Positions 1,666 to 14,888 are shown, counted from the stretch's first letter. The stretch is DNA of 64,000 bases from Armatimonadota bacterium (GCA_038207085.1 JBBRAE010000006.1:1818-65817), one strand, 5' to 3'. Made by a program: numbers and translations. The notes: generated by a model not told the origin, from the letters alone.

Positions 1666-3933
1666 GTGGTGTTCCTCTACCCGGCGCTAAGGCCCGGCTA
1701 CGCGCTCCTACCGGCCCGGTACTTAAGTGCGATGAGCCCCTGGAACGCCTCCCACAGCGCAACCCAGCCGCAGTGGAACCCGCTGATGTGGGACGGGATC
1801 GCCCAGTTCTACCCCTGGAGGGTCCACCTGCACAGGTCGGTTGTCGATGAGGGGATGATCCCGCTTTGGAACCCCTACCAGTTCTGCGGGACCCCGTTTC
1901 TCGCAAATGCCCAGACCGCGCCGCTTTACCCGCTGAATATCTTGTTCATCCTTTTTGAGCCCGTGCGCGCCTTTGGCCTCTCGGCGATGATCCACCTGTT
2001 TCTTGCAGGCGCGTTCACCTTCCTGCTCGCCCGTGCACTTGGGGTAGGCCGCTTCGGGGCGACGGTGTCGGGGGTGACGTTCGCCTTCAGCGCGTTTATG
2101 GTGCTCTGGCTTGAGCTTCCGACGCTTGTAAACGTCGCGACGTGGCTTCCGCTGGTGCTTTATCTAATCCTTCGCGCGTGGGACAGGACCGGGATCGTTC
2201 ACGCGGTCTTCGCGGGCGCGGCTCTTGGGGTCGCGATCCTTGCGGGGCACTTCCAGATAGCCTCCTACGTTGCCTTTGCCGCGGCGAGTTGGTGGGTGTG
2301 GCTTGGAGTGTCAAGGGTGAGAGTCGACGGCGCGGAGTCAATCACGCGAGCGATAAAACTCGGACTCGTCTGTTTCGCGGTCGCATTCCTGGTCGCCGCT
2401 CCACAGGTGCTCCCCACGCTCGAACTCGCGGGGCTTTCCCACCGGGTGCGCGAGGCAACCGCCGCAGGCTACGCAAGCTATCTCAAGAACGCGATTCCCC
2501 TTCGGCATACGATGACGCTTTTCGTCCCGAACTTCTATGGAAACCCCTCCGCGCCCGGCGGCTACTTCGGCGGAAGCGCCGCAAACTTTATGGAGTACGG
2601 CATGTACGTCGGCATTATGCCGTTGCTCTTTGCGATTCTTGGCGCGGTTTTCGCCCTTCGCTGGCGCGCAGCCGGATATTTCCTGCTGCTTGCGGTCATC
2701 TCGTTCCTGCTCGCGGTGGGGACGCCGTTCAATCTCCCGTTCTACTACCTCGTGCCGGGGACAAGCTCGCTTGGCGGGCCTAACAGGGTGATTGTGCTCT
2801 TCTGTTTCTCCATTGCGATGCTTGCGGGCTACGGAGCGCACTGGTTCTCCCAACTCGCGCTTGAGGAGTACCGGGCGACGGGTCGGAAACAGGGCTGGCG
2901 CGCGCTTGCGATCGGCGGAGCGGTCTTTGCGATACTCTTCCTCGCCTGCCAGACGATCACCTCCGGCGGTCTGCAGTCGCTTGGGGTCGACCCCCGACAG
3001 ATCGTTTCCGCGGCGCTCCCTCAGTACGTGCTCTTTGGAGTGATGCTCCTGGGCTCGCTCGGAGTGATGACTATCTACACCGCCGGGCAGCTCCCCAAGG
3101 GGTTTTTCGCGTTTCTTGCGATCTCTGTGATCGTCGCCGATCTCTTCACCTTTGGCATGGGATTTAACCCGGTCTCGCGTGTGGAGCAAGTCTACCCCCG
3201 GACGGGTCTTACCGACTGGCTCGTGAGCAATGCCGGTGACGCGCGCGTGATGCCGATCAACCCGCGTTGGAGCCTTTTCGAGAACCCCGGCGCGCTGCTT
3301 CCTCCAAACGCCGCGACCGTCTTCGGGCTCTGCGACGTGCAGGGGTACGATTCGCTCTTTTACCGCAACTACAAGCAGTTTGTCGACCGCACGCTTGGGA
3401 CGGACTCAAGCCCGCGAGAGAACGGCAATATGCTCCTTATCCCCCGCTACACCCCCGATTGGCCGCAGGGAATGGCCGGTTTGGTGCTCTCCAGGGAGCC
3501 GCTTGGCGCTCGGGGGCTCGAACGGGTCGCGCGGACCGGCGATGTGCTCATCTACCGGCGAACGGCGTTTGGCCCATACCGAAAGACCTACCTAGTGCCC
3601 GCCGACAACGACCCCATCAAGCCCGTATACAGGTCGTGGGTGGCTGACCGCTCGACAAACAGCGTCGTGGTGGTCGCCGAGACCGATCGGCCCGCCCGTG
3701 TGGTATTGGCCGACGCGTTTTATCCCGGCTGGAAGGCTTACGTCGAGGGCGAGGAGCGCCCCGTAACGCCTGCGGATGGTGTGTTTCGCTCGGTTGCAGT
3801 CGAGCCTGGGACCCAGTCGGTCGTCTTCCGGTATGAGCCGGAGAGCTTCCAGATCGGGGTGTTTCTCGGGCTCATTGGCCTCGCGGTTATAGCTGGCGCC
3901 GGTGGGATGGCGTTAGCCGGGAGGCGTGCGTGA
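1666..3933 (+). CDS. YfhO-like polytopic membrane protein (putative GT-C type glycosyltransferase)
   Basis: 755 aa, more than 12 predicted TM helices. The N-terminal WNP(Y)QFCGTPFLANAQTAPLYPLNILF motif resembles the YfhO family. There is a C-terminal soluble domain. GTG start at 1666. The start is uncertain because the open frame continues upstream without an ATG. Confidence 0.6.
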   Translation: MVFLYPALRPGYALLPARYLSAMSPWNASHSATQPQWNPLMWDGIAQFYPWRVHLHRSVVDEGMIPLWNPYQFCGTPFLANAQTAPLYPLNILFILFEPVRAFGLSAMIHLFLAGAFTFLLARALGVGRFGATVSGVTFAFSAFMVLWLELPTLVNVATWLPLVLYLILRAWDRTGIVHAVFAGAALGVAILAGHFQIASYVAFAAASWWVWLGVSRVRVDGAESITRAIKLGLVCFAVAFLVAAPQVLPTLELAGLSHRVREATAAGYASYLKNAIPLRHTMTLFVPNFYGNPSAPGGYFGGSAANFMEYGMYVGIMPLLFAILGAVFALRWRAAGYFLLLAVISFLLAVGTPFNLPFYYLVPGTSSLGGPNRVIVLFCFSIAMLAGYGAHWFSQLALEEYRATGRKQGWRALAIGGAVFAILFLACQTITSGGLQSLGVDPRQIVSAALPQYVLFGVMLLGSLGVMTIYTAGQLPKGFFAFLAISVIVADLFTFGMGFNPVSRVEQVYPRTGLTDWLVSNAGDARVMPINPRWSLFENPGALLPPNAATVFGLCDVQGYDSLFYRNYKQFVDRTLGTDSSPRENGNMLLIPRYTPDWPQGMAGLVLSREPLGARGLERVARTGDVLIYRRTAFGPYRKTYLVPADNDPIKPVYRSWVADRSTNSVVVVAETDRPARVVLADAFYPGWKAYVEGEERPVTPADGVFRSVAVEPGTQSVVFRYEPESFQIGVFLGLIGLAVIAGAGGMALAGRRA

Positions 3934-5501
3934 AAGACGGCTCGGGCCTGAAGATGGCGCTCGTCTGGGCGTGCCTGATAGTGCTTTTGGCCTCCGTGCC
4001 TTACCTTGCGGGGATGCTTCTTGCTCCAGGCGACGGGATGTTTGCGGGGTTCACCTACAACATCGACGACGCATGCGTCTACTCGTCCTGGGTGCGGCAG
4101 GTCGCCGACGGGCACGTGTTCTACCGCAACCTCTACACACCAGAGCCCCAGAGCGCGCTTCAGTTCAACCTGCTTTTCGCGCTGCTTGGAGCCATCTCGC
4201 GCCTGACAGGGATGTCTGCGGCGGCAGTGCTCCACCTCGCGCGCGTCGTGCTCGGGGTCGGGCTGCTGGCGCTGGTGTGGCGGTTTGCTGCGAGGTTCCT
4301 GTCTGACTCGCGCGCCCGCGCCCTTGTCGTGCCGGTCGTTGGCCTTGGTTCGGGGCTTGGGTGGATTCTTCCCAAGGTGCAGGGGCACGCGGGATCGGTC
4401 GACCTCTGGCAGCCTGAGGCTATCACATTTCTTTCAATTTACCTGAACCCGCTCTTTTTAGCGGGCCTCGTCTTGATGCTTGCCGCGCTTCACTTTTTGC
4501 AGAGTCTCGAAGAAACAGGGCGGTGGCGGGACGCTGGGCTTGCCGGACTGATGCTCCTGATCCTTGGAAACGTCCACACCTACGACGTCTTGACCGTCGG
4601 GGCGGTGTGGGCAAGCTACCTTCTGGTTCGGATGATCAGTCGACAGTTGCCCCCGAAACTGGCTCTGCAAAGCCTCGTGGCCGCCGCAATCGCGCTTCCA
4701 TCGGTCGCCTACCAGTTCTATCTATACCGAAGCGTCGAGGTCTTCCGTGCTCGGGTAGAGACCGCCGCACCGTCACCCGTGGTTTGGGCGTACCTCGCAG
4801 GTTTCGGGCTCTTGATAGTGCTCGGGGTGATAGGTGCAAGGCTTGCCCTGCGCGAGCGGCGGGGAATGATTTTGGTCGTTTGGGCGGTCGTCGGCTTTCT
4901 GCTCCCCTACCTGCCCTTTGCTCAGCAGAGGAAGCTTGCGATGGGGCTTCACCTGCCGATCGCGATCCTCGCCTGCGCGGGAATCGCCTGGATCGCGACA
5001 AAGAGCAGGTCCAAGGTGGCCGCGTTGATCATTCTGATACTTCTTGCGCCGTCGAACCTCGTGTTTATGAGCCGGGACATCGGGATGCTGCAATCGGGCG
5101 TCACAGCGCCGCTCTACCCCGCGTATCTGTCCAACTCAGAAGTAAGCGCGCTTCGGTGGATTAGAGATTACTCGGGCGAGCGCGACACGGTTCTTGCCTC
5201 AAGAGAGATTTCGCTCTTCGTCCCGGCGATTGCGGGCAGGACTGTCTACTTCGGTCACTGGAGTGAGACTCCGGACTATGGAAAGAAACTCGGGGAGTGG
5301 ATGCGCTTCATCACCCCCAGCACTTCCGACATTGCCCGGAGGGAGTATCTGGAATCGACCGGTGCGAGGTGGATCATCTATCCCGCACGACCCGGCGAAT
5401 ACGCAGGCACTACCCTCTTTGACCTGCGGCGCGCGCCTTACGTGCGTTTGGCCTATGAAACAGGTAATGTTGCGGTCTACGAAGTGCAATCGAAGTATTG
5501 A
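3930..5501 (+). CDS. Large polytopic membrane protein with a C-terminal soluble domain (GT-C-like putative glycosyltransferase; family unresolved)
   Basis: 523 aa, many hydrophobic helices. Start overlaps the stop of the upstream gene by 4 nt (translational coupling). Clustered with the ArnE/F-like gene and the YfhO-like gene. Confidence 0.45.
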   Translation: MKDGSGLKMALVWACLIVLLASVPYLAGMLLAPGDGMFAGFTYNIDDACVYSSWVRQVADGHVFYRNLYTPEPQSALQFNLLFALLGAISRLTGMSAAAVLHLARVVLGVGLLALVWRFAARFLSDSRARALVVPVVGLGSGLGWILPKVQGHAGSVDLWQPEAITFLSIYLNPLFLAGLVLMLAALHFLQSLEETGRWRDAGLAGLMLLILGNVHTYDVLTVGAVWASYLLVRMISRQLPPKLALQSLVAAAIALPSVAYQFYLYRSVEVFRARVETAAPSPVVWAYLAGFGLLIVLGVIGARLALRERRGMILVVWAVVGFLLPYLPFAQQRKLAMGLHLPIAILACAGIAWIATKSRSKVAALIILILLAPSNLVFMSRDIGMLQSGVTAPLYPAYLSNSEVSALRWIRDYSGERDTVLASREISLFVPAIAGRTVYFGHWSETPDYGKKLGEWMRFITPSTSDIARREYLESTGARWIIYPARPGEYAGTTLFDLRRAPYVRLAYETGNVAVYEVQSKY

Positions 5502-5616: not shown

Positions 5617-5791
5617 GGCAAAAAACAATCGGCCGCCCTAGGGCACGCTTAACTTGAATATTGCACTTTGTCCATCGGTATCTGCCGCGTGCGATGCTTC
5701 GTAGCAACAGTTACCAATGCACAAGAATCAAGTTAATCCGACACTGGGGCGGCCTTTTTGGTTTGTGGTATAATGCCCGATGGAGGTAGTT

Positions 5792-6007
5792 ATGAAGCAG
5801 ACCTTTTCCGCAAGTATAACCAAAGAGGGAGACTGCTACGTGGCCCAGTGCCTGGAGGTCGACGTGGCGAGCGATGGTGAGACTGAAGAAGAAGCGCTGG
5901 AAAACCTCTCGGAAGCGCTCCAGCTCCACTTTACCCCTCCAGTCGCCACTGTTGTGCCAGGCGTGCGGATGATCGAGGTCGATCTACCTACCCCATCCAC
6001 CCCTTGA
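5792..6007 (+). CDS. Orphan HicB-like / UPF0150-family antitoxin-like protein with no adjacent HicA
   Basis: MKQTFSASITKEGDCYVAQCLEVDVASDGETEEEALENLSEALQLHF matches the UPF0150/HicB fold motif. TGgTATAAT sits 18 nt upstream, and GGAGG precedes ATG 5792. No HicA-like ORF on either strand in 5617-5790. The 3' end overlaps the convergent cdsA 3' end. Confidence 0.5.
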   Translation: MKQTFSASITKEGDCYVAQCLEVDVASDGETEEEALENLSEALQLHFTPPVATVVPGVRMIEVDLPTPSTP

Positions 6008-6824
6008 GCGCGATAGTCACGTAGTAGAAAACTACCGGAGCGACGAAGAGCAGGCTGTCGACTCGGTCGAGGACGCCGCCGTGGCCGGGGAGTAGGTTGC
6101 TGAAGTCTTTTACTCCGACTTCGCGCTTGATCGCAGAACCCGCGAGGTCGCCGATCTGGCCGATTATTCCGATCAATGCGCCAAGCACGAGCCCGTGGGG
6201 TTGAGGGATTCCCAAAGCAGCGCCGAGCACCGCGCCGATTATGATCGAGCAGGCAAGACCTGCGACTGAACCCTCCACCGTCTTGTTTGGGCTGATCGTT
6301 GGCGCAAGCTTCTTTCGCCCGTAGAACTTGCCGACGAAATATGCGCCGCTATCAAGCGCCCAGGTGCAGAGAAGCGCAAACATCACAAGCCACGCGCCAG
6401 TTTCGGCGGTCCAGCGTCCGACTGTGACTGATCCGTCGATCCCTCGAAGCAGAGTGAAGTGCATCAGAAGCCAGCAGACGTACCCCAGGCCAAGAAGAGT
6501 CGAGCCGACGTTTGCGAGTGGCTTGCGGTTGTCCCGCAGAAGCTCGTAGGCAAGACAGATGAGCACGAGCCCGACAAGCGTCGGGCCGATGTAGATCATA
6601 TCAGGTGACACTTTGCGCCCGAAGTACAGCACAAGCCCAGCCGCTACGACGCCAAGCATCCGGTTCGGGCGAAACCCGCCCCTGCGCGCCGCACGGTAGA
6701 ACTCGATCATTCCAACGATCACCGCAACGCCGATCAACAGCATAAACGGCAATCCCCCCGGCCAGAAGACCAGGGCAAGTACGATCGGAATTCCAACTAT
6801 TGCAGTTATTATTCGTGTCAGCAT
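5988..6824 (-). CDS. cdsA: Phosphatidate cytidylyltransferase
   Basis: 278 aa with multiple TM helices and the C-terminal signature PGHGGVLDRVDSLLF. Confidence 0.9.
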   Translation of the reverse strand: MLTRIITAIVGIPIVLALVFWPGGLPFMLLIGVAVIVGMIEFYRAARRGGFRPNRMLGVVAAGLVLYFGRKVSPDMIYIGPTLVGLVLICLAYELLRDNRKPLANVGSTLLGLGYVCWLLMHFTLLRGIDGSVTVGRWTAETGAWLVMFALLCTWALDSGAYFVGKFYGRKKLAPTISPNKTVEGSVAGLACSIIIGAVLGAALGIPQPHGLVLGALIGIIGQIGDLAGSAIKREVGVKDFSNLLPGHGGVLDRVDSLLFVAPVVFYYVTIALKGWMG

Positions 6825-6860
6825 AAGCGTCTCCGGATAGTTGCTAGCCCCTAACCTCTG

Positions 6861-8156
6861 CTACTTACTCTTTCTGCTGTCCAGATACTCCTCAACGACC
6901 TTCATCGCGCAGTAGCTGCTGCACATAGAGCAGACGGCTTCGGCGTGGGTCTCTCGACGCTCGCGGATGCTTCGCGCCTTGACCGGGTCGATGCAGAGCT
7001 CAAGCTGCTTTTTCCAGTCCAGGTCTTTGCGGGCCTTGGACATAGCCTTGTCCCACTCGAACGCGCCGGGGACTCCGCGGACGATATCGGCGGCATGCCC
7101 GGCGATCCTTGAGGCCATCACGCCCTCACGCACATCGTCAACGGTCGGCAGGCCAAGGTGCTCGGTCGGGGTCACGTAACAGAGGAAGTCAGCGCCCGAC
7201 ATCGCCGCGATCGCCCCGCCGATTGCTGCGGTGATGTGATCGTAACCCGGCGCAATGTCGGTCACAAGTGGGCCAAGCACATAGAACGGCGCGCCGTCGC
7301 AGAGGCGCTTTTGGAGCAAAACGTTCGCGCTGATCTGGTTTAGCGGCACATGCCCCGGGCCTTCGACCATCGCCTGGACGCCTGCGGCGCGGGAGCGGTC
7401 GACGAGTTCGCCAAGGATTATCAACTCCTGCACCTGTGCGCGGTCGGTCGCGTCGGCAATGCAGCCGGGGCGAAGTCCGTCGCCGAGCGAAAGCGTCACA
7501 TCGTGCTTGCGGCAGATATCAAGCAGGTCATCGAAGCGTGTGTAAAGTGGGTTTTCGGTCTCGTTTGCGATCATCCAGCAGGTGAGAAACGCGCCGCCGC
7601 GACTGACGACGTCGGTAAGCCTTCCCTGCTTCTGGAGCCTGCCGATAGTCTCTTGGGTGACGCCGCAGTGGACGGTTACAAAGTCGACGCCTTCTTTGGC
7701 CTGGCGCTCGATTGCGGCGAAGATGTCGTCCGCGCTCATATCGACGATCGAACCCTTGCGGTCGATCGCTGCTACGGCTGCCTCGTACATCGGAACGGTG
7801 CCGATTTGGACGGGGGAGCGGGCGAGCACTTCTTTTCTGATTCCCGTGATGTCGCCGCCGGTGGAGAGGTCCATCACGGCGTCCGCGCCTGCGTCGATTG
7901 CGGCCTGGAGCTTCTCAAGCTCGGGCTCGAGGTCCGGGAAGTCGGCTGATGTGCCGATGTTGGCGTTTACCTTGACCCGCAGGCCCTCGCCAACGCCCCG
8001 GGGGGCGCGAAGTTCGCGGTTGATGTTGTGGGGGATGACGACGCGGCCTGAGGCGATGCGCTCCATCAATACCTTTTCATCGACCTGCTCGTCCTTTGCA
8101 ACTGCTATCATTTCAGGCGTGAGCTTGCCGGCCCTCGCCGCTTCAAGTTGTGTCAA
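6861..8156 (-). CDS. thiC: Phosphomethylpyrimidine synthase ThiC
   Basis: 431 aa with a strong ThiC match throughout ([24 protein letters not shown], and the C-terminal [11 protein letters not shown] radical-SAM-type Cys motif). Confidence 0.95.
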
Positions 8157-8830
8157 TCCAGATCATCCTTTCGGGCCAGTGAGTCGGCCCACTTACCTTT
8201 ATTAAAAGCTTTACCAAGCGACTGAGCCGCCGCCGCCATATCAGGCGCGCAGACCACAGCCGATATCACCGCCACCGAGTCCGCACCGGAGGCCGCGACC
8301 TCCGCGATGTTCGCCGGTCCGATCCCCCCGATCGTGCAGACGTGCACACTTACGGCCAATTTGATCTTTCGAACCATCTCAAGCCCGAGCCCCGGCCCCG
8401 CATCCTCTTTGGTCGGGGTAGAGAACACCGGGCTGACGGCGACATAATCCGCGCCTTCTTCTTCTGCCCGAATCGCCTCTTCGACGCTTCCGACCGAGAC
8501 CCCGATGATCGCGCCTTGTCCGAGTATCAGCCTCGCCGCCACGACCGGCAGGTCGTCCTGACCCACATGCAGCCCGTCGGCTCCGCAGGCAAGCGCGATA
8601 TCGGCGCGGTTGTTGACGACAAAGATCGTCCCCGTGCCCTGGGTTATCTCCCGAATGGCGATTGCAGTCGCAAGCAGTTCGCGGTCGGAGGCGCACTTTT
8701 CGCGAAGCTGGACCCAGCTCGCGCCGCCTGCAACAGCCGCACGCGCGATATCGATGTGCGAGCGGTCAGAACGGATATCCCCGTCCGTAACCACATAAAC
8801 ACCCGACCCCGCACGAATCTCAACTGCCAT
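8153..8830 (-). CDS. thiE: Thiamine-phosphate synthase ThiE
   Basis: 225 aa with [23 protein letters not shown] and IGGIGPANI motifs typical of ThiE. Stop overlaps the thiC start by 4 nt (operon). Confidence 0.9.
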
Positions 8831-8844
8831 CGATCAAAATCACC

Positions 8845-8884
8845 CAACAAAAAAGCCGCAACCCCGTCCTGCCGGGTGCGCGGC
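8845..8884 (-). terminator. Intrinsic terminator-like hairpin plus U-tract inside the thiE 5' leader, immediately upstream of the thiE RBS (attenuator-type expression platform)
   Basis: On the minus strand, GCCGCGCACCCGGCAGGACGGGGUUGCGGC is followed by UUUUUUGUUGGGUGAUUUUGAUCG-AUG. An upstream leader segment GACCCCGCUGCC can pair with the 5' half of the terminator (antiterminator alternative). Confidence 0.4.
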
Positions 8885-9105
8885 TGAGATAGAATCACTG
8901 ACTAAAGTGTACCACAACGGGCAGACGGTGTAAAGGATTGGCAGCGGGGTCGGATTGTGTTCGTCGCGGAGAACCCATAAGAGGCTAGATTGAAGGAAGT
9001 TGGCACTTACACATCGAAGTGTCATAGTATGAAGAACACGCTCCGTTACGGCGACACCACGGGAGATTATCTGTCAGAGGAGTCCGTATACCTTTATAGA
9101 AAGTA

Positions 9106-10857
9106 ATGCGCACTATGCCTGGACTCACACAATCATCTTTATTCGACTATTATGAAGAACCGTGCTCCGCCGCGTCCAAGACCGTCTCGGATGCGGTTGA
9201 GGAACTTGCGTCCAACAGTGGCGCGGAAGCACGTGGAGCAATATTCACGCGTCGTGAAGTAGTTGATTTTATTCTCGATCTTGTTGGATACACGCCTGAC
9301 AGACCTCTCCACAGATTGTGTCTTCTGGAGCCCTCTTTTGGGGGTGGCGATTTCCTACTCGCGGTGATTGGCCGGCTGCTGGACGCCTGGCGACGGGAAT
9401 CTCATCAGTTAGATTCAGTCGTCGATAACTTGGGCGATGCGATAGTGGCTGTTGAGCTTCATCACGAGACATTTGCGCGCACTCGACAGGCTGTGATAGA
9501 GCAAATCACCCGGGAAGGAATAGAGTCACGATTAGCTGTAGAGTTGGCTGACCGTTGGCTTTCGCAGGGTGATTACTTGCTGCAGCGACTTGGCGAGAGG
9601 TTTGACTTCGTCGTCGGCAACCCTCCGTATGTGCGCCAAGAGATGATTCCTGCCCCACTCTTGGCCGAGTATAGAAGTCGCTATCAAACTATGTATGACA
9701 GGGCTGACATATACGTGGCCTTTATGGAGCGTTCGCTGCTGGTTCTCAAGAATGGTGGCAGTTTGGGCTTCATTTGTGCTGACCGATGGACGAAGAACCG
9801 CTATGGTGGACCCTTGCGCAACCTTGTCTCAGACGGCTTCAGCTTGGACGTGTTTGTTGATATGGTGAACACCCCCGCATTTCACAGCGAAGTGAGCGCA
9901 TATCCCGCCATTACCATCATCAGCAGACAGAAACAGGGTCCGACCCGTGTTGCTCATCGTCCTACTATTGATCGTACCCAACTGTATGCTCTTGCCAAGA
10001 AGCTGCGCGCGGAGCGACTGACACCAGATGATGAGACTTTGCGTGAACTCGCTGGTGTTGTCAAAGGCTCTGAGCCGTGGCTGCTGGATTCGTCCGACCA
10101 AATCTCGGTTCTTCGTCGTCTTGAGGAGCAGTTCCCGTCTCTCGAACGGGCTGGGTGCAAGGTGGGCATTGGTGTGGCTACAGGAGCGGACGACGCCTTT
10201 ATCTCGGATTACGAGACCCTGGACGTGGAGCCGGATCGGAAACTGCCTTTGGTTACAACCCGCGATATTCAGTCCGGCGAAGTTGTATGGCGTGGTCTTG
10301 GCGTCGTGAACCCATTTGCCGAGGACGGAGGTCTTGTCGACCTTAGCGACTATCCGAGACTTGCGCGGTATTTGGAGACACGAAAGGGCGTGATAGCCGC
10401 CCGCCACTGCGCACAAAAGTCTCCGACCCACTGGTATCGCACTATCGACAGGATAACACCGGCTCTCGCGGCACAACCCAAACTACTCGTGCCAGATATC
10501 AAAGGCGAGGCGCATATAGTCTATGAGGAGGGGCGGTTTTATCCGCACCATAACCTTTACTACATTGTGTCTGCGACTTGGAACTTGCGCGCCCTGCAGG
10601 CGGTTCTGCTTTCAAACGTCGCGCGGCTGTTTGTGGCGAACTATTCGACAAGGATGCGTGGAGGTTACCTGCGATTTCAAGCGCAATACTTGCGCCGCAT
10701 CCGAATCCCTTACTGGCAGGATGTGGCAGATGAGTTGCGCTGCGAGTTGATTGAAGCCGCCGAGTCGCGGAACTCGCTGGCATGTGACAGGGCGGTATTC
10801 AGACTTTATGGATTGAGCGAAGATGAGCGCGCAGTATTGGGAGGCAATGGAGAGTAG
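9106..10857 (+). CDS. Type II restriction-modification N6-adenine DNA methyltransferase (gamma-class, Eco57I/TaqI-like N6_Mtase family)
   Basis: 583 aa. The N-terminal [16 protein letters not shown] (AdoMet region) and the catalytic [10 protein letters not shown] (motif IV NPPY) are followed by a long C-terminal target-recognition region. GC content is lower than in the flanking DNA. Confidence 0.85.
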
Positions 10858-10931
10858 AGATGGCGATCGACGTTGTTGACTATGAGCGAAAATGCAGTGA
10901 GGCGGTTAAGGCTTTTTGAGGCAACCGCGAA

Positions 10932-11600
10932 ATGGCCCGGCAAAAGCAGATCGAGTCCGGCAGATATGATCAGGGTGAACGTGCAGGGGTTACGGCAGGC
11001 AAGAATATGGACGGCTTTATCGCCTTGATCCGCGATATTGTGTCTGCAAACGGACTTGCTCACGCCGAGGTTTACCAGAGCCGAACGTTACTCACCCTGC
11101 CTGGGTTCTTCCGCCCGACCAAGCTTTGGGACCTCCTTGTTGTGCACAAAGGCGCACTGATCGCCGCTATAGAAATGAAGAGCCAGGTCGGCCCGTCTTT
11201 CGGCAACAACTTTAACAATAGAACGGAAGAGGCAATAGGAACCGCACATGACTTGTGGACCGCCTATCGGGAAGGCGCATTCGGCAAGCAACCGAGGCCC
11301 TATGTCGCCTGAATCATGATGGTCGAGGATGTTGCCAAGTCACGTGCCCCGGTCAGTGCCAACTCTCCACACTTTCCTATCTTTCCAGATTTCCAGGGCG
11401 CTTCATATCTCGATCGTTATGATCTGCTATGTCAGAAGCTGGTTCAGGAGCAACTCTACACAGCGGCTTCACTGATAGCATCTCCCCAAAGCGCCGCCAA
11501 GACCGGGGAGTATTCTGAGTTTTCGTCGATGACCAGTATGAAGGCCTTCGTCACATCGTTTGCGGGCCATATTGCTGCAGAGGCTGCCAGGTTGGGATAG
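10932..11600 (+). pseudogene. Type II restriction endonuclease (PD-(D/E)XK fold) interrupted by a single in-frame TGA at 11310-11312. Probably an inactivated R gene of the adjacent R-M system.
   Basis: ORFs 10932..11312 and 11316..11600 are in the same frame. They are separated only by TGA-ATC (GTC GCC TGA ATC ATG ATG). A PD...EXK-like core, [20 protein letters not shown], lies in the first part. The combined length of about 222 codons matches small REases; tentatively PaeR7I/XhoI-like. Confidence 0.5.
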
Positions 11601-11745
11601 ACGTGGCTCGACCTCGTGAGCCATCGCGGCAGATTGACCATGTCCCCGCCGCGTGCTATAATCGAACGTGCTCTGAGCGTGTTTTTTCGCTTCGGCACGC
11701 AGATTTTGCGCGCGGCTGCGCTGTTTTTGGCCGCCAAAGGGATTA

Positions 11746-12348
11746 ATGCTGAACTGGAATGACTACCGGCGAAAAACCGGGCTTGTAATCGTGCTTTCAG
11801 GGCCATCCGGTGTAGGTAAAGACCGGGTGCTGGAGGAGTTCGTCAAGGTCTGTCCCGACGTTTATAAGTGCGTCACTGCGACCACCCGAGCGCCAAGGCC
11901 CGCCGAAGTGCCCGGCAGGGACTATCACTTTCTATCCGTCGACCAGTTCAGGCGAATGGTCGACGACCAGCAGTTTCTGGAGTTCGCCGAGGTACATGGC
12001 AACCTCTATGGAACCCCCAAATCCTGGGTGCTCGAACAGGCCGCACAGGGGCGAGACGTGGTGCTCAAGATCGACGTGCAGGGTGGCATCTCGGTCAAAA
12101 AACAGATCCCCGAAGCCGTGATGATTTTTCTCGTGCCGCCGAGCCTCGAAGAACTCGAACGCAGGCTCCGGTCGCGGGGCACCGAAAACGAGTCCGAGGC
12201 GACCAAGCGTCTTCTCGACGCGCAAAGTGAGCTGCAGTACCTTCCGTGCTATCAGTATATGGTAGTAAACGACGTGGTGGAAAAAGCCGTAGAAGAATTG
12301 AGGGCTGTAATCGTTGCAGAACGCAGCAGGATCGTGCCCCAGGAGTGA
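11746..12348 (+). CDS. gmk: Guanylate kinase
   Basis: LVIVLSGPSGVGKDRV P-loop, TTRAPRPAEVPGRDYHF, and LEFAEVHGNLYGT. Confidence 0.9.
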   Translation: MLNWNDYRRKTGLVIVLSGPSGVGKDRVLEEFVKVCPDVYKCVTATTRAPRPAEVPGRDYHFLSVDQFRRMVDDQQFLEFAEVHGNLYGTPKSWVLEQAAQGRDVVLKIDVQGGISVKKQIPEAVMIFLVPPSLEELERRLRSRGTENESEATKRLLDAQSELQYLPCYQYMVVNDVVEKAVEELRAVIVAERSRIVPQE

Positions 12349-13549
12349 CCTCGCGGGCAAGACAATTATCCTCGGTGTGACCGGGAGCATCGCGGCGTAC
12401 AAGGCAGCCGAAGTGGCGAGCAAGCTCACCCAGCTCGGCGCCGATGTTCACGTGATTATGACCGACTCGGCGACCAAGCTTGTGGGTGAAGCGACCTTTC
12501 GCGCACTTACCCACAACGCAGTCATCACAAGTATGTGGGACGAGCCAAGGGTGGATGAGATCGTCCACGTGTCGCTTCCCAACAAGGCCGACCTGTTTCT
12601 CGTGGCCCCGGCGACTGCGAACCTGATCGGAAAGCTCGCAAACGGGATCGCCGACGATATGCTCACCACCGCCGCGATGGTCGTGCGTGGACCCGTCTTG
12701 ATCGCGCCCGCGATGAACACGAGGATGTACACCAACCCCATAGTGATCGGTAACATGGATCGCCTGAAGAGCCTGGGGTGGAGCTTCGTCGAACCAACCG
12801 AAGGGCTGCTCGCATGCGGCGATGAAGGTGTGGGGCGCTTGGCTGAGCCTGCCGCGATCGTCGCTGCGGTTACGTCCGCCCTTCTTGGCGGCAAGCGCGA
12901 TATGGTTGGGATGAACGTTCTTGTCACCGCAGGCCCGACGCGCGAGCCCGTTGACCCGATTAGATATGTCTCGAATTATTCTTCGGGTAAAATGGGGTAT
13001 GCTATAGCTGAGGCTGCTGCAGCGCGCGGGGCGACTGTTACGCTGGTAAGCGGCCCAACCGAGCTAACCGAACCCCGGGGCGTCGGTGTTGTAAACGTTC
13101 AGACCGCCCAGGAGATGCACCATGCGGTGCTCGACCACGTGGCCTCGGCAAATGTCGTCATCGCCGCCGCGGCTGTAGCTGATTACCGTCCCGCGAAGAA
13201 GAGCGACATCAAACTGAAGAAGCAACAGGACTGGCTCAAGCTGGAGCTTGAACAGACCGAAGATATATTGAAGCATCTGGGAGAGATCAAGGGAGACAGG
13301 GTCCTTGTCGGCTTTGCCGCCGAGACAAACGATCTTATCGAAAACGCGAGAAAGAAGCTCGTCGAAAAGAACCTGGACCTGATAGTCGCAAACGATGTCT
13401 CGGATCCCGCAGGTGTCTTTGGCAGCAACACAAACGCGGTGACTCTTATGCCGAGGCAGGGTGAGATAAGCTCGCTCCCCAGGATGTCAAAGCGCGAGGT
13501 CGCCCACGAGATATTCGATTATATCATGACTAACCTTTGGGAGTTGTGA
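12314..13549 (+). CDS. coaBC: Bifunctional phosphopantothenoylcysteine decarboxylase / phosphopantothenate-cysteine ligase (CoaBC/Dfp)
   Basis: N-terminal flavoprotein domain (ILGVTGSIAAYKA, PAMNTRM) and C-terminal CoaB domain (VTAGPTREPVDPIRYVSNYSSGKMG, AAVADYRP). TTG start at 12314 overlaps the gmk end. The exact start is uncertain. Confidence 0.9.
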   Translation: MQNAAGSCPRSDLAGKTIILGVTGSIAAYKAAEVASKLTQLGADVHVIMTDSATKLVGEATFRALTHNAVITSMWDEPRVDEIVHVSLPNKADLFLVAPATANLIGKLANGIADDMLTTAAMVVRGPVLIAPAMNTRMYTNPIVIGNMDRLKSLGWSFVEPTEGLLACGDEGVGRLAEPAAIVAAVTSALLGGKRDMVGMNVLVTAGPTREPVDPIRYVSNYSSGKMGYAIAEAAAARGATVTLVSGPTELTEPRGVGVVNVQTAQEMHHAVLDHVASANVVIAAAAVADYRPAKKSDIKLKKQQDWLKLELEQTEDILKHLGEIKGDRVLVGFAAETNDLIENARKKLVEKNLDLIVANDVSDPAGVFGSNTNAVTLMPRQGEISSLPRMSKREVAHEIFDYIMTNLWEL

Positions 13550-13588
13550 TGACGAAAGCAGTGTTTACCATACTGCTGTCGCCAAAGA

Positions 13589-13739
13589 CTTCGTCACAAC
13601 GAGAGCGTAAATGGCATAAGGCGCCATTTACTTGGGAGTTGTGATAAAGACTCTCGCAGCGCAAAGCCCGCGCTGCTGCCGTCTTCATCACAACGAGAGC
13701 GTAAATGGGAAAAACGCCATTTACAAGGGAGGCAACTGT
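13589..13739 (+). promoter_or_regulatory. Structured metK 5' leader with two tandem copies of a 42-nt hairpin-containing repeat and a central hairpin. Candidate cis-regulatory RNA of unknown class.
   Basis: Repeat 1 at 13589-13631 and repeat 2 at 13683-13724 both read CTTC(G/A)TCACAACGAGAGCGTAAATGG-loop-CCATTTAC. The 8-9 bp stems are identical but the loops differ (CATAAGGCG vs GAAAAACG). A central hairpin GCAGCGC-AAAGCCC-GCGCTGC lies at 13656-13676. Repeat 2 ends 1 nt before the AAGGGAGG SD of metK. Confidence 0.4.
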
Positions 13740-14888
13740 TTGAAGCAGAGAGATTTTTCGTTCACATCTGAATCAGTAACCGAGGGGCATCCAGATAAGC
13801 TTGCCGACCAGATATCGGATGCCGTTCTCGATGCCATTTTGGCCCAGGATCCGACCGGTCGCGTGGCCTGTGAGGCGTTTCTTACTACGGGACTCGTCGT
13901 CGTAGCCGGTGAGATCACCACGACGGCTTACGCGGAGATCCCCGAGATCGTCCGGCGCACCCTGGAGAGCGTCGGCTACACCCGCGCCAAGTACGGGTTC
14001 GACTTCCAGACCTGCGGCGTGCTGACGGCTATACAGTCGCAGTCCCCGGATATCGCGATGGGCGTCGACAGCGGCGGCGCGGGCGACCAGGGCATGATGT
14101 TCGGCTACGCCTGCAACGATACCCCCGAGCTTATGCCGATGCCGATCATGCTCGCGCACAAGCTCTCCCGCAAACTCGCCGAGGTCCGCAAGAACGGCGA
14201 CATCCGCTACCTGAGGCCTGATGGCAAGAGCCAGGTGACTATTCGCTACGAGGCCGGCAAGCCGGTCGCAGTTGAGAAGGTTGTCATATCGGCCCAGCAC
14301 CAGCCCAACATCCCGCAGGCGACGATCCGCGAGGATATCATCGAGCAGGTTATCAAGCCGGTGCTCGCACACATCTGCGACGGCGTCACCTGCGATATCT
14401 ACGTGAACCCGACCGGCCAGTTTGTGGTCGGCGGCCCCCAGGGAGACACCGGGCTCACCGGGCGCAAGATTATCGTCGACACCTACGGTGGAATGGCAAG
14501 GCACGGCGGAGGATGCTTCTCCGGCAAGGATCCGACCAAGGTTGACCGTTCGGCCGCTTACATGATGCGCTATATAGCGAAAAACATCGTCGCCGCCGGG
14601 CTTGCGGACCGCTGCGAGCTTGAGGTCGCCTACGCGATCGGTGAGGCCGAGCCGATGGGAGTTATGGTCGAGGCATTTGGCACAGAGAATATCCCTGAGA
14701 CCAAGATTATGGAGTTGGTTCGCAAGTATTTCGACCTCACGCCGGGCGGGATTATCAGAAAGCTCAACCTGCGCAGGCCGATATACCAGCAGACCGCAGC
14801 CTACGGCCACTTCGGTCGAATCGATCTCGATGTGCCGTGGGAAGAGACCGACATGGCCGACACCCTGCGCGCCGACGCCGGGATTTAG
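13740..14888 (+). CDS. metK: S-adenosylmethionine synthetase
   Basis: [37 protein letters not shown], and [19 protein letters not shown]-type motifs. Start set at TTG 13740, which follows the AAGGGAGG RBS. The ORF-track start at 13632 would add a non-homologous N-terminus. Confidence 0.9.

Follow-up and report, generated by a model that had tools for sequence, protein, structure and literature searches.

The DNA between thiE and gmk in this Armatimonadota-like host raises the question of whether a Type II restriction-modification (R-M) pair lying there is still a working pair, or whether its endonuclease gene (R) has been inactivated beside a methyltransferase gene (M) that is kept. Loss of R with retention of M is a common fate of R-M systems. 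A previous, sequence-only reading of the window (that is, the whole stretch of 64,000 nucleotides that was analysed) had proposed just this outcome, on the strength of one TGA codon within R. We find a Type II pair in which the M frame is open and R carries two nonsense codons, not one. The locus is very probably a Type IIP PaeR7I/XhoI module in which M is intact and R was recently inactivated by these two TGAs, leaving a solitary methylase.

The M and R genes

9106–10857, + strand: M, PaeR7I-type methyltransferase gene, 583 codons plus TAG (10855–10857), an intact open reading frame
9619–9630, + strand: NPPY catalytic motif IV of M, residues 172–175, located from the sequence and an alignment with M.PaeR7I
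10860–11600, + strand: R, XhoI/PaeR7I-family endonuclease pseudogene, 246 codons plus TAG (11598–11600), with two in-frame TGAs
11130–11180, + strand: PD-(D/E)XK-type catalytic core of R, with D91 (11130–11132), E105 (11172–11174) and K107 (11178–11180) all intact

The product of M has Pfam matches to an Eco57I-type catalytic domain [2.8e-21, PF07669] and a TaqI-like C-terminal specificity domain [TaqI_C, PF12950, residues 432–532]; its Pfam match to PF02384 [N6_Mtase] is weaker. It also matches the PADLOC model MTase_II [1.2e-264, PDLC03313] over positions 4–561 of 563, and in an alignment of 567 aa its identity to paeR7IM from plasmid pRSB105 is 69%. The FGGGDF motif (AdoMet, approximately residues 78–83) is followed by NPPY and then by the specificity domain, which is the gamma-class order. 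This order and its length (583 aa here, 577–584 aa in its homologues) mark it as a full-length PaeR7I-type gamma-class N6-adenine methyltransferase, as had been read from the sequence on the basis of the GNPPY motif (residues 171–175) and the uninterrupted frame. M carries private substitutions at 18 of 293 conserved columns, the highest number among 118 homologues, and some of these are non-conservative. Based upon its full-length frame M presumably continues to be active, but with these substitutions its activity is not assured.

The ATG of R at 10860 lies 2 nt past the stop codon of M, and is preceded at a distance of 7 nt by GGAG. When R is read through both TGAs it matches Pfam PF04555 over positions 1–191 of 191 [330.7 bits against a cut-off of 25, 3.8e-99], a score far beyond chance, and the PADLOC model REase_II [5.5e-119, PDLC03540] over positions 1–245 of 247. 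The 120 top homologues listed are nearly all 246 aa in length (a few are 241–250 aa), with 98–100% coverage and 76–81% identity, while plasmid copies of paeR7IR are 74.8% identical over residues 1–246. The tentative assignment to the PaeR7I/XhoI type that had been made from the sequence is thus borne out for both genes. No NCBIfam model matches R.

The limits of R differ from those first given, in which the methyltransferase was followed after a 75-nt spacer by a frame of 223 codons. The count of 223 is correct for 10932–11600; the gene itself starts at 10860 and has 246 codons. Because the homologues align from residue 1, and because M and R abut in related loci, the supposed spacer is the first 24 codons of R. 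Among 80 loci drawn from species-representative genomes, 79 have M upstream of R and in the same orientation. In 77 of them R begins within −20 to +26 nt of the end of M; 33 loci have a junction of 0 nt and 12 have one of 2 nt. With its junction of 2 nt the present pair is an abutting Type II R-M operon.

The PD...EXK-like core noted from the sequence (WDLLVV...AAIEMK) is present in the R frame. Its residues D91, E105 and K107 show no variation among R and 18 homologues (alignment A1), so that R retains the catalytic D...ExK signature. The frame of a functional XhoI/PaeR7I enzyme is uninterrupted; that of R is broken, and we consider the gene a pseudogene of this family. From the conserved motif, and from what is known of the superfamily, we assign R, with due reserve, to the PD-(D/E)XK fold. 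A search of PDB sequences with R gave no match, and thus no solved structure of the family was found by sequence. An AlphaFold2 model built upon a 19-sequence alignment reached a mean pLDDT of only 40, the homologues being too alike.

Two in-frame TGA codons

10917–10919, + strand: first in-frame TGA, codon 20 of R, TGG to TGA at a conserved Trp, overlooked by the sequence-only reading
10932–10934, + strand: ATG, codon 25 of R, taken in that reading as the start, with TGAGG 10 nt upstream
11310–11312, + strand: second in-frame TGA, codon 151 of R, TGG to TGA at a conserved Trp, in the context GCC TGA ATC ATG ATG
11316–11321, + strand: ATG ATG, codons 153–154 of R, 3 nt past the second TGA

The R frame had been described as split by the TGA at 11310–11312 alone. 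That codon is where it was said to be, and a further TGA lies at 10917–10919, upstream of the start that had been assumed. Codons 20 and 151 specify Trp in 18 of 18 homologues (alignment A1) and are TGG in all 71 of the genome loci which are ungapped and therefore comparable. Both lesions are therefore G-to-A transitions, TGG to TGA.

The course of events that we propose is as follows. M and R, 2 nt apart, would have formed one operon placed at a break in synteny between thiE and gmk; M, by homology, would methylate the adenine of CTCGAG, and R would once have cut C^TCGAG. Two G-to-A transitions would then have turned Trp codons 20 and 151 into TGA. Translation begun at the intact R start would yield only 19 residues. 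A restart at Met25, which is conceivable given the TGAGG sequence, would lead as far as codon 151, short of the final third of the protein, with loss of the C-terminal 96 residues. Two premature stops of this kind suggest that R activity has been lost. M would meanwhile stay a full-length frame, and in this way the R-M system of the cell would be giving way to a solitary methylase.

Could the two TGAs be errors? If the population carried TGG at one or both positions, R would be functional, and the stops would belong to a minority allele or would have arisen in sequencing or assembly. The source is indeed a metagenome-derived contig. Logan contig SRR19962012_97794 (7,980 nt), which is 100% identical to window positions 5683–13662 with both TGAs included, speaks against an artefact, although the Logan and deposited assemblies may share reads. 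Records from an NCBI contig likewise list M and a 126-aa fragment of R, and no repaired R allele was found among approximately 15 billion proteins. An artefact would further demand two independent substitution errors within a single 741-nt gene, both of them creating stop codons, in a clean 64-kb window whose other genes are intact, whereas natural nonsense alleles occur in about 2.5% of the loci of this family. Substitution errors are rare in a short-read consensus, which also counts against it. We regard this explanation as very unlikely.

Gene callers give a 126-aa product for 10932–11312, and one might suppose from this that the pieces are functional genes in their own right, such as one for a small control or other protein and, behind it, one for a short nuclease. 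All three pieces are, however, collinear and ungapped with single 246-aa proteins, and none matches a helix-turn-helix or control-protein family; nor is such an arrangement seen in any of 160 homologous loci. The ungapped alignment to these single polypeptides holds only when both TGAs are read through. There is scarcely any likelihood left for separate genes: the question raised with the first reading, whether its two open reading frames are distinct, is answered by their being halves of one 246-aa protein, and the interpretation as an interrupted endonuclease survives. We also considered a C-protein-controlled system and rejected it, the short frame before the first TGA being the N-terminus of R, with no match to a control protein. 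Position 25 is Ala, Lys or another residue in 159 of the 160 loci and Met in one, and Met occurs there in none of the 120 proteins. Around codon 151 the homologues read W-L/M-M-L/M-VED; since Met153 is usual in the family, the 94-codon frame which follows the second TGA is a by-product and not a gene of its own. The proper annotation is accordingly an M gene followed by an R pseudogene at 10860–11600 with two internal stops, rather than a 126-aa "XhoI" protein.

Decoding of TGA in R

Both TGAs align with Trp, as would be expected if TGA specified Trp in this host or in a donor of the module that used TGA for Trp; decoding as Gly or as selenocysteine would be further forms of the same explanation. 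TGA ends 12 of the 30 longest open reading frames of the window, while frames of up to 1322 codons, housekeeping genes included, are uninterrupted, and TGA is therefore an ordinary stop in the host. The remaining Trp codons of R (W90 and W133) and all those of M are TGG, as follows from these frames being open otherwise. A code-4 donor is also difficult to reconcile with a G+C content of 54% and 75% identity to plasmid-borne PaeR7I. The RNA structure predicted for the 60 nt after each TGA is weaker than in shuffled controls (z of +0.8 and +1.9) and holds no SECIS-like element or hairpin; the only tRNAs in the window are tRNA-Met and tRNA-Val, neither of them a suppressor. We therefore reject selenocysteine insertion on account of the weak downstream structure, and a code-4 host or donor because TGA terminates frames of the window; as far as the window shows, there is hardly any chance that R is recoded. 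Programmed read-through, which had been offered as an alternative to gene loss, likewise goes unsupported, with no structure past the TGAs and TGA a normal stop in this host.

The main alternative is that R is attenuated and not dead. The UGAs might sometimes be read by Trp-tRNA(CCA), restoring the wild-type residue and giving a trace of active enzyme; a further possible route is termination followed by re-initiation at Met25 and Met153, yielding trace or split enzyme. UGA in place of Trp is the one pairing of stop and residue for which near-cognate read-through gives back the wild-type protein. The catalytic residues are intact and R shows no excess of decay; an A follows the second UGA, with an ATG 3 nt downstream, and after the first UGA comes the rare Met25 with TGAGG 10 nt upstream. 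In E. coli K-12 approximately 2–4% of UGA codons are read through by Trp-tRNA (PMC10570021). At such rates, two stops in series would leave about 4e-4 to 1.6e-3 of the normal yield. As in leaky UGA decoding by Trp-tRNA in bacteria, the UGAs of R are found at Trp positions; R differs in having two of them in series, lacking a stimulatory context, and neither is followed by a stimulatory structure. Codon 151 falls in a hydrophobic segment past the helix that follows ExK, and an enzyme split here probably would not fold.

Nor is the choice of Trp codons a strong argument for attenuation. Nonsense makes up 3.9% of the possible point changes in R, and there are 21 transition routes to a stop, eight of them at Trp codons; two hits at Trp would arise by chance with a probability of about 0.1, which is mildly unusual and not significant. 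Elsewhere in the family TGG to TGA accounts for only one of four single-nonsense R alleles, with no family-wide preference. Nothing in the R sequence points to read-through being used or selected, and the two stops in series make the yield negligible. An attenuated R thus seems very improbable to us, and so does its stronger form, in which the two UGA-for-Trp codons serve as a throttle. Trp-tRNA, by reading them as near-cognate codons, perhaps aided by restart at Met25 and Met153, would supply traces of a wild-type PaeR7I-like nuclease, and with these the lineage would retain restriction, or post-segregational addiction, at a low level that it can tolerate. Such a throttle, were it real, would account for an R gene without further decay, and only read-through, if it occurs, would bear on how toxic defence genes are attenuated.

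Age, origin and specificity of the module

The preferred reading, in which R is inactive, leads to the question of how long it has been so. When the columns shared by 95% or more of 120 homologues are considered, R has eight private amino-acid changes, all of them conservative (L>V, I>V, F>Y, G>A, A>V, E>D, R>Q and L>M). This ranks it second of 121 sequences, of which it is also the most divergent. At the nucleotide level 10 of 323 conserved columns carry private changes, two of these being the stops themselves; intact homologues have 0–22, with a median of about eight. In this test for relaxed selection, based on private substitutions at conserved columns, R is not an outlier. The M-R pair would appear to be a divergent lineage in which R has not decayed faster than M. 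Since there is no extra decay beyond the stops, the inactivation looks recent.

Broken R genes are found elsewhere in the family. We compared 160 related loci, 80 from species-representative genomes and 80 from metagenomes. Four (about 2.5%) have R with one nonsense codon and one has a truncated R:

L025, genome locus: W133, TGG to TGA
L068, genome locus: Q192, CAA to TAA
L071, genome locus: R truncated after residue 225
L098, metagenome locus: C191 to TGA
L163, metagenome locus: S182 to TAG

No R with two stops occurs among the 160. A preference for TGG to TGA hinted at by the genome loci was not upheld by the metagenome loci. Visibly broken R genes thus make up about 3% of PaeR7I-family loci, to which the present locus adds one data point. 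Orphan methyltransferases derived by R decay offer the obvious parallel, an intact M beside an R with inactivating mutations. The present case would be an early stage of that route, R being still of full length and 80% identical to active-looking homologues, and it has two stops where others in the family have a single one.

The intervals on either side of the module are these:

8831–9105, strand not assigned: spacer between the divergent genes thiE and M, non-coding, G+C 0.51–0.52
11601–11745, + strand: spacer between R and gmk, with a strong sigma-70-like promoter at 11634–11662 (11 of 12 matches plus TG)

On the left thiE adjoins the module and is divergent, as described before, and on the right lies gmk. 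The spacer at 8831–9105 resembles none of the flanks of other family loci and contains no Rfam family. Rfam searches yielded nothing in 6000–14000, nothing credible at a relaxed threshold in 8700–9300, and no TPP riboswitch upstream of thiE.

The Gmk protein next to the module is 72% identical to proteins of Armatimonadota MAGs and 85% identical to one on a JGI contig; a Gmk search of the contigs of GTDB species representatives gave no relative, so that the host would not be one of these, and its Armatimonadota-like affiliation is deduced from the names of the Gmk homologues. The order gmk-coaBC-metK downstream is common to the window and to its relatives, and priA-def is also kept on three longer contigs. 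Upstream of gmk the closest relative has remA and ybbR, and others have unrelated genes; the R-M pair is absent from the gmk locus of the relatives that we examined. Against the gmk locus of the nearest relative, nucleotide homology sets in only at 11734, at a distance of 12 nt from the gmk ATG, and the lineage-specific block thus has its right-hand limit here. We found no flanking direct or inverted repeats that would hint at a transposon or an integration scar, and past the stop codon of R the similarity to other family loci ceases.

The G+C content of 9106–11600 is 54.1%, compared to 58.0% for the window, in agreement with the lower G+C already noted for this segment; the thiC/thiE stretch to its left is at 0.60–0.65. 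Members of the family at 65–80% identity are found in Desulfuromonadales, Fibrobacteraceae, Kiritimatiellia, Planctomycetes, Bacillota, Cyanobacteria and many Proteobacteria, as well as on mobilizable plasmids. Low G+C, this wide spread among phyla and plasmids, and the absence of the module from the gmk locus of relatives make horizontal acquisition, which had been suggested earlier, probable.

PaeR7I recognizes CTCGAG and cuts after the first C, and its methylase produces m6A at the fifth base (PMC3031569). The 64-kb window contains seven CTCGAG sites compared to 26.0 expected under a maximal-order Markov model (Poisson P of about 1e-5), and of the 2813 hexamers expected 10 times or more it is the second most depleted. 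The deficit agrees with the specificity that is predicted, and suggests that the DNA was long exposed to cutting at CTCGAG. In 43 kb of contigs from relatives which lack the module at the gmk locus there are seven sites against 15.8 expected; given this milder deficit, the signal may be partly lineage-wide. From 69–75% identity to the PaeR7I proteins and the depletion of the site, we infer that R would have cleaved C^TCGAG and that M methylates its adenine. The organism would then carry a CTCGm6AG mark without restriction.

The closest described counterpart is the Pseudomonas aeruginosa plasmid system PaeR7I (paeR7IM/paeR7IR, compared here in the copy on IncP plasmid pRSB105, DQ839391), with which the present module shares the abutting M-R order, the sizes of both proteins (M 574–583 aa, R 246 aa), the Pfam families and the NPPY and D...ExK motifs. 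It differs in the two premature TGAs of R, in its chromosomal location in an Armatimonadota-like host, and in having no adjacent invertase gene (paeR7IN) or transposon. Likewise, with regard to the XhoI family (PF04555; Type IIP, isoschizomers acting on CTCGAG), R is a high-scoring match of full length and the host DNA strongly avoids CTCGAG. Among 111 matching plasmid records, only 33 cover at least 80% of R. This kind of system, its family and its fate of losing R while keeping M are already known, and what is new is a slightly unusual, double-stop instance in a poorly sampled phylum; its significance beyond correct annotation is little.

Broken endonuclease genes in the PaeR7I family

The window is not alone in carrying a damaged XhoI/PaeR7I-family endonuclease (R) gene, since 5 of the 160 other PaeR7I-family loci possess an R gene which is visibly broken.

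Visibly broken R genes in other PaeR7I-family loci
L025 (genome), R W133 changed to TGA
L068 (genome), R Q192 changed to TAA
L071 (genome), R truncated, ending after residue 225
L098 (metagenome), R C191 changed to TGA
L163 (metagenome), R S182 changed to TAG

In all three of the genome loci (L025, L068 and L071) the broken gene adjoins a match to the methyltransferase (M) free of internal stops. Within the plasmid collection 80% or more of R was covered in only 33 of the 111 records matching it, and truncated remnants of the plasmid-borne homologue paeR7IR appear to be present on many Klebsiella, Enterobacter and Citrobacter plasmids. In a further locus, L044 (Chitinolyticbacter albus NZ_JANBVF010000035.1), M is separated from an intact R by a gap of 477 nt. 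A second XhoI-like gene, more distantly related, survives in this gap (3676–4114) as two degraded fragments, which lie in different frames and show 39% and 55% identity. These look like the remnant of an earlier R gene which has since been replaced by a new one.

A methionine codon downstream of the first TGA

Codon 25 of R, four codons past the first in-frame TGA, is ATG (10932–10934). Methionine is rare at this variable position, being found in 1 of 160 loci and in none of 120 proteins. The TGAGG which lies 10 nt upstream of this ATG was created by the TGG-to-TGA change itself. Met25 could be a coincidence or a restart site.

Flanking spacers

The closest relative is locus L083, whose Gmk is 85% identical to that of the window. 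There the start of gmk is overlapped by remA, which is preceded by ybbR; the window lacks remA, and homology to L083 begins only at 11734. Two features lie in the replaced stretch, within 11601–11745:

11634–11662, near-consensus sigma-70-like promoter, TTGACC-17-TATAAT with TG
11664–11684, terminator-like hairpin

On the other side of the module lies the region upstream of the thiE-thiC operon (minus strand; 8831–9105), where Rfam searches found neither a TPP riboswitch nor a member of another family, even when the threshold was relaxed. The leader of this operon may have been displaced by insertion of the restriction-modification module, or its regulation may be different.

Hexamer depletion

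Over the whole 64-kb window the most strongly depleted hexamer is TGGCCA, with 2 occurrences observed versus 17.5 expected; CTCGAG, the PaeR7I site and predicted specificity of the module, is less depleted. This deficit hints that a restriction system of BalI/MscI type, specific for TGGCCA and located somewhere in the genome, acts on this DNA or once did so.
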